A DNA stretch of 64,000 nucleotides, from contig OZ244044.1 in assembly GCA_965215275.1 (NCBI GenBank), positions 1,024,001 to 1,088,000 of the forward strand, read 5' to 3'. Origin of the DNA: Thermodesulfobacteriota bacterium. GTDB taxonomy: Bacteria; Desulfobacterota_D; UBA1144; Nemesobacterales; JAJCZQ01. Numbering within the stretch: the stretch's first letter is position 1; each line of letters opens with the position of its first letter. Shown in pieces: positions 16,194 through 20,689 of this stretch. The notes under the pieces were generated by a model. That model worked only from the letters and a program-made list of their open reading frames with translations, did not search any database and was not told the origin of the DNA. Both the position numbers and the translations under genes were made by a program.

Positions 16194-17555
16194 TCAGATC
16201 CTGTCCCTGCACTCCTGCAGTTCTGATTCGATCATATGCCTGATCTCGTTCAATCTCTCTTTCGACCGGGCTTCAAATCTCATCACCAGGGCAGGCTGCG
16301 TGTTGGAAGCCCGTATAAGTCCCCATCCATCAGGAAAGTTGACCCTTACCCCATCTATATCCACGACTTCGTGATCGGACCTGAGCTTTTCCGTAACGCT
16401 CTCGACCAGTTTAAATTTTATGTCCTCTTCACAGTCCACTCTTATCTCCGGAGTGGAGCAGGTTTCAGGTACGTGAGATAGGAGTTCAGACAGCTTTCTT
16501 TCCGTGCCTGAAATTATTTCCAGTAACCTGAGTGCGGCATACAGAGCATCATCGTAGCCGTAGAACCTGTCGTTGAAGAAAACGTGTCCGCTCATCTCAC
16601 CGGCAAGTACTGCACCGGTTTCCCCTATTTTGTTCTTAATAAGAGAATGTCCCGTTTTCCACATGACGGGGTTTCCGCCTGCCCTTCTGATCTCACCGAA
16701 CAGCTCAGAGGAACATTTAACGTCCCCTATTACCGTTGCACCTTTGATCTTTTCCAGAATGCTCAGGGCATAGATAAGTACGAGCATATCTCCCCAGATG
16801 ATACTTCCGTTCTCATCCAGCACCCCGATACGGTCGCCGTCCCCGTCGAACGCTATTCCGACCTCACATCCGTTATCAACAACGGCTCTGCGCAGGTCCT
16901 TTAAGTTCTCCTCCACTGTGGGATCAGGATGATGATTTGGAAAACTGCCGTCCGGATCTGAATAAAGCTCTACAAGGTCACATCCCAGCTCTCTAAGGAC
17001 CGCGGGTCCTGCCAGTCCGACCATACCGTTACCACAGTCAACTGCCACCTTCAGACCTCGTCTGATATTGATGTCCTTTCTTATATCCTTTGAGTAGGCA
17101 TCCGTAACTGACCGCTCCTGCACCAGGCCGCTTCCTTTTTCAAAGTCGTCTTTTTCAATAAGTTCCTTCAGTCCTTTTATCCCGGCACCAAATAACGAAC
17201 TCTTCCCGACGTTCAGCTTCATACCGTTGTAATCCTTAGGATTATGACTTGCCGTCACCATAACCCCTCCATCGACCTTCAGGTTGAATAAGGAAAAGTA
17301 AAGGATCGGAGTGGAGACGAGACCGATGTCCACAACGCTTACCCCCGTGTCAACGATACCCTGAATTAACGACCCTGAGAGGCTCGGGGAACTCGACCTG
17401 CAGTCTCTGCCCACTGAGACCACCCTGCCCCCGTTTCTTCTGATCAAAGTACCGTAAGCCCTTCCGATCAGCACGGCGTCACGTTCCCGTATATCCAGAC
17501 CGTATACGCCCCTTATATCGTACTCTCTGAAAATATCCTGTCTTATACTCGCCAT
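16194..17555 (-). CDS. Phosphomannomutase/phosphoglucomutase (AlgC-like)
   Basis: FREYDIRG, TASHNP phosphoserine motif, DGDGDR, GEMSGH. Confidence 0.95.
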   Translation of the reverse strand: MASIRQDIFREYDIRGVYGLDIRERDAVLIGRAYGTLIRRNGGRVVSVGRDCRSSSPSLSGSLIQGIVDTGVSVVDIGLVSTPILYFSLFNLKVDGGVMVTASHNPKDYNGMKLNVGKSSLFGAGIKGLKELIEKDDFEKGSGLVQERSVTDAYSKDIRKDINIRRGLKVAVDCGNGMVGLAGPAVLRELGCDLVELYSDPDGSFPNHHPDPTVEENLKDLRRAVVDNGCEVGIAFDGDGDRIGVLDENGSIIWGDMLVLIYALSILEKIKGATVIGDVKCSSELFGEIRRAGGNPVMWKTGHSLIKNKIGETGAVLAGEMSGHVFFNDRFYGYDDALYAALRLLEIISGTERKLSELLSHVPETCSTPEIRVDCEEDIKFKLVESVTEKLRSDHEVVDIDGVRVNFPDGWGLIRASNTQPALVMRFEARSKERLNEIRHMIESELQECRDRI

Positions 17556-17672
17556 CGTCCTTATCTGATCATGTATTTAAGATCTGCCGGTAATTATAAT
17601 TGGGACTTATATACTTTAGTACCCAACAAAAGATTTAACAGATAAATAGTATTGTAATATAATTACAGAGGA

Positions 17673-19064
17673 ATGGATAGTGAAAAGAGGATAATTAAGC
17701 AGACGAGGACGGAACGCAGAGTGGCTGGATTGAATCACCCTTCAACTCATAAGGGTTTGGAAAGGACTTTGGACCAGCTTACCTATCTGTATAACAGCGC
17801 TCTGGAAGAAAGGAAAGAAGCGTACAAAAAATACAAGAAGCTGAAGAAGTGGGGTTTGTCAGAAGAAAGATTACAGATGTATTTCTACCCACAATGGGAG
17901 TTTGGTACTTCTTACAACAAGAAGAACAGAGTTAAATATCTGGATACAGTTTATGAAGCAGTTAACAGGTTAGTAAGTAATATCAGACCTTGCGATGATC
18001 CTGTTAACTGGAGAGAGTTAACAAAACAGGAGCTAAAGAAGAAGTCAGTCAGTTACGAAGATCAGGCGAAGTCACTGACTGAGATAAGGAATGATGTTTT
18101 ATTGAAAGGATTCAACAAGGCAGGCGTTCAGGGACAGCAAAGGACGTTAAAGAGAGTGGATAAGGCTTACAGTGATTATATTAAAGGATTGAGAGGCAGT
18201 CCGAGATATAAGAACAGCAGCAGGAAGGTAAGAAGTTTTGAAACATATACATGGGGAAATGTAAAGAAAGGTGAGAGAAGGACATATTTAACGGTAAAGG
18301 GAGTTGGGAGGATCTCATTCAGAGGAAGCATACCGGAAGGAACAAAATACATAAGGATATTAAGAACAGCTTTAAGAGTAGAGATCCAGTTTATTTACGA
18401 AACAATAGCTGGAGAGGACAGAGGACTGGACAGACCTGTAGGAATGGACCTTGGAGTAAGGAACAGGATTGCTTTATCAGATGGGTCGTTTTACAAGGGA
18501 ACTGAAGTAAGCAGAAAGAAAGACAAAAGAAAGCAAAGAGCAGTTTCAAGAGCTGAGAAAAGTTCGAACGGCAGAAAGAAGAAGATAAAGCTGCTTGGGA
18601 AGGAACATGCAAGAACAGCAATGAAGGAACATAACAAAGTTCACAGGTTAACTACAGAACTGTCAAGAGCGTATAATTTTGTTATATCAGAAGATCTGAG
18701 ATTAAGGGATATGAGCAGATCGGCAAAGGGGAACGTGGGAGATCCGGGTAAGAAAGTAAAGCAGAAATCTGGATTAAACAGGTCCTTACGGGAACAGCAA
18801 TTGGGCAAGGTATTAAATCAGCTTGAATACAAGGTTAAAAGCACTGGTGGCAAGCTGATCAGGAACCCGGCTCAATATACGTCACAGACCTGTTCTGAGT
18901 GCGGATACAGAGATAAAAGGAACAGAAAAGGAGAAGTATTTAAGTGTGTGTATTGCGGTCATAAAGACCATGCAGACACGAATGCAGCTATAAACATTTG
19001 CAATAGTGAAAAGACACTATGTCGGGTGGGACAGCCAGACTTGAGTTCCCGATGCAAGCTGTAA
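17673..19064 (+). CDS. tnpB: RNA-guided endonuclease TnpB family protein
   Basis: N-terminal YLYNSALEER helix, GSPRYK, RuvC-I GMDLG, RuvC-II ISEDL, KSGLNRS, YTSQTCSECG/CVYCG zinc finger, RuvC-III HADTNAAINI. Confidence 0.93.
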   Translation: MDSEKRIIKQTRTERRVAGLNHPSTHKGLERTLDQLTYLYNSALEERKEAYKKYKKLKKWGLSEERLQMYFYPQWEFGTSYNKKNRVKYLDTVYEAVNRLVSNIRPCDDPVNWRELTKQELKKKSVSYEDQAKSLTEIRNDVLLKGFNKAGVQGQQRTLKRVDKAYSDYIKGLRGSPRYKNSSRKVRSFETYTWGNVKKGERRTYLTVKGVGRISFRGSIPEGTKYIRILRTALRVEIQFIYETIAGEDRGLDRPVGMDLGVRNRIALSDGSFYKGTEVSRKKDKRKQRAVSRAEKSSNGRKKKIKLLGKEHARTAMKEHNKVHRLTTELSRAYNFVISEDLRLRDMSRSAKGNVGDPGKKVKQKSGLNRSLREQQLGKVLNQLEYKVKSTGGKLIRNPAQYTSQTCSECGYRDKRNRKGEVFKCVYCGHKDHADTNAAINICNSEKTLCRVGQPDLSSRCKL

Positions 19065-19154
19065 ATGTTTTATCAAAAGAGAACGGGGAATTAAGAGGGA
19101 CTCTGCTTGCAGAACAGTATGTTTAGTACTTGTGTACTAAAGTATATAAGTCCC
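19020..19154 (+). ncRNA. Putative omega-RNA scaffold overlapping the tnpB 3' end
   Basis: Position typical of TnpB omega-RNAs. Stems: GTCGGG/CCCGAT (19021-19053), TGCAAGC/GCTTGCA (19053-19059 with 19105-19111), TTTAGTAC/GTACTAAA (19122-19141). Boundaries are inferred. Confidence 0.5.
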
Positions 19155-19204
19155 TTATAAAGCCGTTATTGACTTTGATAAGTTACTTCTTATTATTCCT
19201 GACT

Positions 19205-20689
19205 GTGATCTATCCAAGCATTGATGAATTTAAGAAAAGCCTGGAACACGGCAATATGGTCCCCGTGTGGGAAGAGATACTTGCGGACTTCGACACGCCC
19301 GTCTCGGCTTTTAAAAAAATAGAGAACGGTAACTACTGCTTTCTTTTCGAAAGCGTGGAAGGTGGTGAGAAATGGGGGCAATACAGCTTTATCGGCTCGG
19401 AAGTATCCGTGATATTCAGATCAAAAGGGGAGAACATTGAAATAATCGAAAGCGGCAACGTCAGGAATATAAAAGGCAATCCGATAGATGAGCTGAGAGA
19501 ACTGCTTTCACGATACACGCCGGTCGAAAGTCCCTGCCTGCCCAGATTTCAGGGAGGAGCAGTGGGGTATTTCAGCTACGATATCGTAAGGTTCATAGAA
19601 AAACTTCCCGACGGTAACGAAGATGACCTGCAGCTCTGGGACTGTATTTACGTCATTACGGACACTATAGTTGCCTTTGATAATATTAACAATAAGATAA
19701 AAATAATTGCCAATGCGTTCGTTCCGGACAAAAAAGACGCCGACAAGGTATACAGCAGTTCCGTAGAAAAGATCAAAAGCATAAAGAACAGGCTGAGGGG
19801 GCCCCTGCTCGATAAAAACATCTATAACCGTCACGGCACCGACAATGATAACAGGACAGACCTGAGCTCTAACTTTGACAAGGAAGCATATAAAGAGGCA
19901 GTTGCAAAGACGAAAAAGTACATAGAGGCCGGAGATATTATCCAGTCAGTGATCTCTCAAAGATGGAACACCAGGCTTACGGTCGACCCGTTCGACCTTT
20001 ACAGATGCCTCAGGGTACTCAACCCATCGCCGTACATGTTCTATCTGAAGTTTGACGATCAGATCCTTGCAGGTTCATCTCCGGAAGTTATGGTCAGGGT
20101 AGAGGAAGGCAGAATAGAAAGCAGACCAATTGCCGGTACCCGTCCAAGGGGCAGGACCCCGGACGAAGATATGCACCTGTCGAAAGACCTGCTCTCGGAC
20201 CCCAAGGAACGGGCAGAGCACATCATGCTGGTTGACCTTGCAAGGAACGACCTGGGAAAGGTGGCTCAGGTGGGCAGCGTAGTGGTCGATGAGTTCATGA
20301 CGATCGAGAGATACTCTCACGTTATGCACATCGTCTCCAACGTGGTTGCCAGACTGGACACGGGTAAGGACTCGTTCGACGTGATAAAAGCAACCGTTCC
20401 GGCCGGAACCCTTTCCGGTGCACCTAAAATAAGGGCGATGGAAATAATAGATGAGATGGAAAACACAAGGAGAGGAGCATACGGAGGAACAGTTGGCTAC
20501 TTCAGCTTTTCAAGTAACATGGACAGTTGTATAGTTATCAGAACGTTCGTTATAAAGAACGGGAGGATATATATACAGTCAGGGGCAGGTATCGTGGCTG
20601 ATTCAGATCCGGAATCAGAGTATAATGAGACCGTGAACAAGATCAAGGCACTTGTCAAGGCAGTTGAGATGGCAAAGACAGGACTATAG
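19205..20689 (+). CDS. trpE: Anthranilate synthase component I
   Basis: DFDTPVSAF, FLFESVEGGEKWGQYSFIG, NPSPYM, PIAGTRPRG, PAGTLSGAPK. GTG 19205 taken as start because the track start lies inside the TIR. Confidence 0.93.
   Translation: MIYPSIDEFKKSLEHGNMVPVWEEILADFDTPVSAFKKIENGNYCFLFESVEGGEKWGQYSFIGSEVSVIFRSKGENIEIIESGNVRNIKGNPIDELRELLSRYTPVESPCLPRFQGGAVGYFSYDIVRFIEKLPDGNEDDLQLWDCIYVITDTIVAFDNINNKIKIIANAFVPDKKDADKVYSSSVEKIKSIKNRLRGPLLDKNIYNRHGTDNDNRTDLSSNFDKEAYKEAVAKTKKYIEAGDIIQSVISQRWNTRLTVDPFDLYRCLRVLNPSPYMFYLKFDDQILAGSSPEVMVRVEEGRIESRPIAGTRPRGRTPDEDMHLSKDLLSDPKERAEHIMLVDLARNDLGKVAQVGSVVVDEFMTIERYSHVMHIVSNVVARLDTGKDSFDVIKATVPAGTLSGAPKIRAMEIIDEMENTRRGAYGGTVGYFSFSSNMDSCIVIRTFVIKNGRIYIQSGAGIVADSDPESEYNETVNKIKALVKAVEMAKTGL

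Follow-up and report, generated by a model that had tools for sequence, protein, structure and literature searches.

The subject of this analysis is a 64-kb window (positions 1,024,001 to 1,088,000 of contig OZ244044.1, from a Thermodesulfobacteriota bacterium), in which a single gene for the guided nuclease TnpB lies between terminal inverted repeats (TIRs). Judged from its sequences, the element belongs to a real, active-looking family of tnpB-only elements with ends of the IS1595 type, and it is very likely mobilised by an IS1595 transposase encoded elsewhere in the genome. We also regard as probable a longer chain of events, in which this mobilisation in trans is combined with homing by TnpB through a target-adjacent motif (TAM) that would lie outside the target duplication.

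A tnpB gene between terminal inverted repeats

The focal element (17602-19154, 1553 bp) is bounded by 25-bp TIRs that are complementary at 24 of 25 positions, and its left TIR fits an end motif found throughout the genome. Bare coordinates are positions within the window and C1 coordinates are positions on the single contig of the genome (G000, 1.99 Mb). The element has one substantial open reading frame (ORF), tnpB; the three other listed frames are antisense, 55-76 amino acids long, and lie within it. Only 71 bp separate the edge of the element from the start of tnpB, and these are taken up by the TIR and a predicted promoter. The features of the element are as follows.

17602..17626, + strand: left TIR, IS1595 type, pairing with the right TIR at 24 of 25 positions.
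17635..17663, + strand: predicted sigma-70-like promoter 5' of tnpB (TTAACA-17-TATAAT; consensus scan, 11 of 12 positions).
17673..19064, + strand: tnpB, 463 amino acids, with RuvC residues D259/E340/D435 and a C4 zinc finger (profile, alignment and predicted model).
19021..19154, + strand: predicted omegaRNA scaffold (fold prediction).
19130..19154, - strand: right TIR, pairing with the left TIR and also forming the 3' end of the predicted scaffold.

The focal protein scores 157 bits against the NCBIfam guided_TnpB profile (NF040570, cut-off 100) and falls under the cut-offs of the IS200-TnpB and IS607-TnpB profiles. The RuvC residues D259, E340 and D435 and the cysteines C407, C410, C425 and C428 are invariant in an alignment of 16 sequences (alignment A1). 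An AlphaFold model was of moderate confidence (mean predicted local distance difference test score of 67.6), with the TnpB cryo-electron microscopy structures 8h1j and 8iaz as its best structure matches. An insertion of approximately 65 amino acids in the N-terminal recognition region (window 17830-18040), modelled with low confidence, is confined to groups A and B of the family described below and is otherwise missing from relatives. The tnpB family is under purifying selection: the ratio of nonsynonymous to synonymous substitution rates (dN/dS) is 0.22-0.41 among four group A copies and 0.15-0.40 in seven other pairs (13 pairs in all, 0.15-0.41). An earlier note, made from the letters of this DNA alone, had described a 1553-bp element with 25-bp TIRs matching at 24 of 25 positions, an intact RuvC triad and zinc finger, and no tnpA or other transposase inside; re-measurement, the 16-sequence alignment and the ORF content agree with it on each point.

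The family in the genome and in related genomes

The genome contains 19 full-length tnpB-only elements in five groups (A to E), of which 16 have an ATG-started ORF of at least 400 amino acids. Group A comprises the focal element and three further copies with 95.6-96.5% identity to it. Among the 19 elements the flanking 8-mers match at 8/8 positions in nine, 7/8 in three, 6/8 in two and at most 4/8 in five, and an 8/8 match was never obtained by mismatched pairing of left and right flanks (0/342). Sister copies have their boundaries at the TIR tips and lie at different host sites with different 8-bp duplications. Variable sites among the group A copies cluster in tracts, which suggests recombination between copies. 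The junctions of copies A2 to A4 could not be placed in G001 (same genus) or G002 (same family), which are too diverged, and the A4 site is filled in runs X8 (a close strain) and X10 as well. Elsewhere in the genome, elements B4 and B3 stand head to head (L010, G000:C1:1616480-1619604), separated by no more than 16 bp, the left 8-mer of each.

A C-type query had matches in 22 of 36 genomes of one genus, which belongs to another family of the order, and in 0/4 other genomes of the window's own family, these being 80-99% complete. With loci in relatives typed by their best match, a TIR pair was found at 50 of 65 C-type loci and an 8/8 duplication at 25 of 65; the corresponding counts for E-type loci are 10/13 and 5/13, and a few repeated sites are included in both sets. 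Scanning a genome collection with alignment A2 gave 95 candidates, of which one was confirmed. This locus (L149:1826-3679, OZ241837.1, Arenicellales) has the same end type in another phylum; its left end precedes tnpB by 675 bp, and the tip is repeated in five additional bases ahead of the 8-mer. In metagenomes, 8 of 13 matches to the end pattern were accompanied by a TnpB match, and a scan with the focal protein confirmed 0 of 27 candidate stretches. The end pattern had 0 matches in viral contigs.

A quick tree of 91 proteins placed groups A to D, the C-type relatives, L149 and L196 in one clade (Shimodaira-Hasegawa-like approximate likelihood ratio test support of 99). The context is known for 19 of the 33 rows in this A-D clade, and all 19 have TIRs. 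The E-type proteins form a separate clade (support of 100, with a long-branch warning), which suggests that TnpB was captured by IS1595-type ends at least twice. One TnpB of the E-type clade, in G019 (L027:369-539), is without TIRs. A CRISPR-like array follows it, in which a 39-nt repeat occurs twice without change and a third time in part, spaced every 66 nt. The last letters of the repeat are TATTCCCAAG and resemble a TIR tip followed by flank. This locus is a possible case of conversion of TnpB to Cas12.

IS1595 transposases share the ends of the family

IS1595 elements are the prokaryotic relatives of the eukaryotic Merlin transposons. The end motif has 235 matches in the genome, compared with one on one shuffled strand, and paired ends enclose tnpB, transposases or passenger genes. 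We identified 32 IS1595-like transposase loci, seven of which have a full ORF, a zinc ribbon and D/D/E motifs, and all four transposases tested against NF033547 passed. An intact transposase of 307 amino acids belongs to the element at C1:675417-678070. None of the 32 loci lies inside a tnpB element, and the closest to the focal element is 38.5 kb away; lacking an IS1595 DDE transposase of its own, the focal element is thus non-autonomous. In a related genome (G052), the left end of an autonomous IS1595 element (L157) is the same, at 24/24 positions, as the left end of tnpB-only elements there. No match to the IS607 transposase profile NF033518 was detected in the genome. The genome's single, weak match to Y1_Tnp (C1:1883440) is outside all 19 tnpB elements. 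The frame concerned (C1:1883440-1883715, minus strand, 269 amino acids, unlinked to tnpB) has a C-terminal helix-turn-helix-like tail and is presumably akin to the transposases associated with repetitive extragenic palindromic sequences (REP-associated tyrosine transposases).

Other cargo was also observed between ends of this type. IS1595-type elements with 8/8 duplications (L003, L004, L005, L020 and G000:C1:17470-21955) carry passengers; passenger genes of such elements include a fusion of DNA methylase and HNH domains (Pfam), other methylase-like genes and unknown genes. One composite unit is bounded by two miniature inverted-repeat transposable elements (MITEs) of approximately 430 bp. 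A dense IS1595 cluster occupies C1:1897941-1984256, where many copies are frameshifted or have an altered catalytic glutamate and are without matching duplications. Short tnpB-free pieces were found at C1:890494-890742, 292673, 324044, 376656, 522415 and 773916-773941. They retain a 3' core similar to that of the omegaRNA together with a TIR tip whose last bases are CCG, and one is a 249-bp unit with both ends. These pieces are possibly MITEs or stand-alone guide RNAs.

The right end as a predicted omegaRNA scaffold

The scaffold of the omegaRNA likely ends at the TIR tip. A conserved stem is predicted at 19021-19026/19048-19053, the loop GGGAC (19028-19032) is predicted to form a pseudoknot with the element tip GTCCC (19150-19154), and the right TIR contributes its inner half to the predicted 3' hairpin. 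Over their last 42 bases, right ends fold better than shuffled sequences (mean z of -2.0 for 55 ends), compared with values of -0.23 for left ends and -0.29 for tnpB-free ends (22 ends). Across copies, a conserved loop GGGA(C/A) can pair with a tip (G/T)TCCC, with a C-G fifth pair in 3/4 A copies and an A-U fifth pair in 7/7 B-D copies. The scaffold motif is kept although group A translates the same stretch in another frame. Rfam gave no match near the gathering score for the element.

The base preceding the left duplication

We compared the base immediately 5' of the left duplication (position -9) with the mirror position on the right. In C-type relatives, 29 loci with a duplication of at least 7/8 were scored (L101 and L138 among them being one site in two genomes) and the 21 loci that have a TIR pair and no such duplication were excluded. 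Position -9 is G in 28/29, compared with 6/29 at the mirror position (Fisher p = 2e-9). In the C/D group of the window's genome, -9 is G in 7/7 copies (C2 being omitted as it has no 8-bp duplication), compared with 0/24 ends of 12 tnpB-free elements (p = 4e-7); tnpB-free ends of relatives likewise have G at -9 in 0/6 (three elements). The insertion sites represent separate events and the proteins are kin. C-type relatives in which no ATG precedes the element still have G at 18 of 19 sites, against a background of 23% G. The autonomous element L157 has T at -9 next to its identical left TIR. E-type copies have a purine at -9 in 10/10, and the genome's E group has TA there in 3/3. The -9 base is therefore likely to indicate a TAM that lies outside the duplication, and the duplication would be the seed of the guide. 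A search of the genome with 20 guides gave six extra 12-base matches, each with 2-4 mismatches in 16, and no full-length second target for any guide.

A separate pattern concerns start codons. Right ends with an ATG 15 bases from the tip lie directly behind a host ATG in 10/13 loci (9/12 distinct sites), compared with 0/16 for ends without one. At seven loci in relatives of genus g10 (L096, L098, L101, L127, L138, L140 and L141) the frame runs on as a long ORF, and the element there appears to provide the gene that it interrupts with another start codon in frame.

The focal copy has no true duplication

The focal element lies in the spacer between the divergent genes pgm and trpE. A promoter-like site near the start of trpE (19169-19196) is outside the element. 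The neighbouring genes and flanking sequences are as follows.

16194..17555, - strand: phosphoglucomutase/phosphomannomutase gene of the host, left neighbour (Pfam PGM_PMM I-IV); adjoins trpE in G001 to G003.
17589..17593, + strand: host bases GGTAA 5' of the left 8-mer, the candidate TAM position, with A at 17593 as the -9 base.
17594..17601, + strand: left 8-mer TTATAATT, host DNA and most likely the true insertion target (present in the X8 empty allele and nearly so in G001 and G002).
19155..19170, + strand: host right flank, the predicted guide, opening with TTATAAAG; by empty-allele comparison, 12 bp of the empty-site spacer are gone before it.
19205..20689, + strand: anthranilate synthase component I gene (trpE) of the host, right neighbour, with a likely GTG start at 19205.

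The two 8-mers that flank the focal element match at 6/8 positions, and a match of at least 6/8 occurs in 23 of 342 mismatched left/right pairings of the genome's own tnpB-element flanks. One contig of run X8 carries an empty allele, in which 17601 is joined to 19155 with 12 other letters between them. G001 and G002 have the same pgm-trpE spacer with 12 and 13 extra bases, respectively, so the longer spacer form is ancestral. Both 8-mers are already present 12-13 bp apart in all three empty alleles; they thus predate the insertion, and the net change in the filled allele is a loss of 12 bp. The three alleles rule out that the 6/8 match is a decayed duplication. In the simplest history of the focal allele, the element inserted at the left 8-mer, and a deletion between two right-hand TTATAA repeats later removed 20 bp and would thereby have changed the focal guide; the same allele would also result from an end-mediated adjacent deletion or from recombination between two neighbouring insertions. 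The first 12 bases of the predicted focal guide are unique in the genome.

Two other candidates were rejected. Flank swapping among the four group A copies does not account for their missing duplications, as no left 8-mer equals the right 8-mer of another copy. A MITE-like joint of approximately 31-bp ends in runs X8 and X10 proved to be the left TIR of a copy mapped onto the right TIR. Two short loose-end motifs of run X8 had no match in the genome.

These results divide the reading of the earlier note, which was that TnpB sits in a non-autonomous DDE element mobilised in trans and flanked by a target duplication. The TIR element holds and, from the sister duplications and shared ends, is of the IS1595 type; the duplication at the focal copy does not, given that both 8-mers are in the empty alleles. 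The ISNwi1 group, to whose end signature the note compared these ends, is a tentative subgroup assignment. What that note had proposed to look for was found: other copies with different 8-bp duplications (8/8 in nine of 19), the empty pgm-trpE site (the X8 contig and the G001 and G002 spacers), and an IS1595 transposase bounded by the same end motif (in the genome itself, with an identical 24-mer in G052). It had named homologues without TIRs, an absence of second copies and empty sites, or an internal IS605-type boundary as grounds for giving up its reading; we found homologues with TIRs, second copies together with an empty site, and no such internal boundary.

Proposed mobilisation in trans and homing, and alternative explanations

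The proposed chain has four steps. A resident IS1595 DDE transposase would bind the 25-bp TIRs, as the ends and the sister copies indicate, and insert the element into AT-rich DNA with duplication of 8 bp. As the scaffold is predicted to stop precisely at the TIR tip, the guide would start with the right copy of the duplication and extend into host DNA. Its target would be the empty allele, which presents the TAM, the 8-mer and the flank in this order. In the filled allele, the left junction offers the TAM with only eight matching bases and the right junction offers a full match without the TAM; each is incomplete as a target, and the filled allele would therefore escape cutting. Insertions behind a TAM would then be able to cut empty alleles, whether sister or incoming, and recombination would spread these insertions. 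The transposase would supply no TAM, so only TAM-adjacent insertions could home, and these would be the copies seen at consensus frequency.

Several observations weigh against this chain. A bias of nearly 100% that opposes the A/T preference of the transposase needs very strong selection. In the focal A/B group, -9 is A in 8/8 copies, compared with 14/24 control ends (p = 0.035); A is thus favoured by the controls also, and the case for a TAM at the focal copy is weak. Only 3/8 A/B copies keep a duplication of at least 7/8, and a clean one is absent from all four A copies (6, 1, 4 and 1 of 8 positions), the nearest sisters A2 to A4 included. The -9 base of L149, which the tree places as sister to A-D, is A. 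The control set in relatives is small, as a TIR pair with a duplication lay within the fetched flank in only 3/44 transposase loci. The nearest ends of an element with an intact transposase are only 21/25 identical to the focal TIR. The compensatory change in the pseudoknot is a single inherited event, and in a wider set (n = 65) the fifth column is A-U in 45, C-G in 3, G-U in 1 and unpaired in 16.

The base at -9 could also have been selected at the moment of insertion. In this explanation, the IS1595 transposase is directed to sites next to a TAM by TnpB and its omegaRNA, and the guide goes unused. The near-absolute bias (28/29 and 7/7), its restriction to one side and its opposition to the A/T preference of tnpB-free elements (0/30 ends with G) would all fit, and the RNA-encoding right end would, by general DDE chemistry, attack the bond that joins -9 to -8. 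A link between TnpB and the transposase is hypothetical, however; consensus genomes show only high-frequency alleles, a pattern that homing alone could explain, and purifying selection together with an intact RuvC site points to cutting as the retained function. We consider steering unlikely. Equally improbable in our view is the larger idea built on it, that a TnpB-omegaRNA complex coupled to the IS1595 transposase places insertions behind its own TAM as a two-part, guide-independent precursor of CRISPR-associated transposition, with one lineage going further and landing behind host start codons to which the right end adds a new in-frame ATG. A preference of the transposase or end subtype, or the survival of insertions at harmless sites, might instead account for the -9 bias, with TnpB as a passenger in another role (plasmid or phage interference, or RNA-guided binding). 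The association of ATG-bearing right ends with a host ATG (10/13 compared with 0/16) does indicate that site survival shapes the flanks, and the control set is small. Against this stand the G at 18/19 sites without an ATG and across three TIR subtypes in the genome, its absence at L157 despite an identical TIR, the shift of the favoured base with the TnpB subgroup (G, A or purine), and the absence of a full-length second guide target in the genome. This explanation also seems improbable to us, if marginally less so than steering.

A last alternative concerns the element itself: an IS605- or IS607-type tnpB might have jumped into an existing IS1595 MITE, so that the true ends lie inside the TIRs. 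TnpB does descend from ordinary TnpBs, and the distant homologues L106 and L107 from the order (28-33% identity) have no TIRs and have IS605-like ends (GTTCAC/GTCAC). The sister copies contradict a nested origin, as they match out to the TIR tips and differ in host flanks. Furthermore, the 71 bp upstream of the start codon are filled by TIR and promoter, the right TIR is part of the predicted scaffold, and the genome has no empty MITE with A-type inner ends, no IS607 transposase, and only the one weak, unlinked Y1 match. We regard a nested origin as highly improbable. Mobilisation in trans combined with homing is thus the account that we prefer.

Comparison with known systems

That TnpB can be associated with DDE transposons is known already; what appears to be new here is IS1595 as the partner, which is absent as such from the text available to us. 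Altae-Tran 2023 (PMC10691335) describes, in the accessible text, six DDE-associated TnpB branches (DDE-1 to DDE-6) with inverted terminal repeats and solo TnpBs that share ends with transposase-bearing elements. The novelty implied by the earlier note was therefore overstated. These branches resemble the focal class in having a prokaryotic TnpB between inverted terminal repeats. The partner family named in that text is IS630; IS1595 does not occur in the main text and is mentioned once in the supplement, in the list of search profiles. A 2026 review (PMC13565253) names ISL2, IS630 and IS1031 as DDE partners of TnpB in the parts available, and a paper on TnpB and IS1595 was not found in the literature searched, whose coverage excludes subscription papers such as Siguier 2009. 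According to the supplement of PMC10691335, the predicted end of DDE-5 is preceded, at a distance of 8 bp, by a TA motif. This geometry is that of the C/D and E groups, with TA as the motif in E, G in C/D and a weak A in the focal group. As far as it is described there, DDE-5 is enriched on plasmids and has a rearranged catalytic site, whereas the focal protein is chromosomal with a canonical D/E/D. DDE-5 may itself be linked to IS1595, in which case the pairing of TnpB with IS1595 would already be contained in the data of Altae-Tran 2023.

The IS1595 family is characterised, in the text seen of PMC5704250, by 25-bp TIRs, 8-bp target repeats and a circular intermediate. Passenger carriers such as MTnSag1 and tISCpe8 have a counterpart in the window's genome, where TIR-sharing transposase and DNA methylase elements likewise occur. 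Unlike IS1595 members, the focal element has no transposase, carries a guided nuclease as its sole cargo, and has a right TIR that doubles as the predicted scaffold end. If IS1595 elements copy out with the donor left intact, TnpB would not serve to restore an excised donor and would be of benefit by homing into alleles that are empty. The family is a small system in which selection and steering are separable, as it provides numerous natural insertion sites, three predicted kinds of TAM and the cognate transposases. TAMs of one or two bases, as predicted here, are also of interest for editing tools.

As in IS200/IS605 elements (including solo tnpB of the IS1341 type) and IS607 elements, the omegaRNA is predicted to overlap the 3' end of the gene and the guide to come from the right flank. 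Those elements have neither TIRs nor duplications, according to the sections consulted of PMC13565253. The target motif of their transposase is the TAM; here, the putative TAM is eight variable bases away from the element. How a guided nuclease serves a DDE transposon whose target is duplicated and variable is posed as an open question in the same parts of PMC13565253, and the flank data suggest a testable answer that is unlike the one of Fanzors: the TAM would lie beyond the duplication, the duplicated bases would form the seed of the guide, and the scaffold would stop at the TIR tip. The TAM of Fanzors includes the 5' duplication, and their scaffold takes up the 3' duplication (PMC13565253 and PMC10711439, as far as accessible). 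Compared with Fanzor1 and Fanzor2*, which reside in eukaryotic TIR transposons and have the TAM within the duplication, the arrangement proposed here would be the reverse, with the conserved base outside the duplication and the duplication itself probably serving as the seed of the guide.

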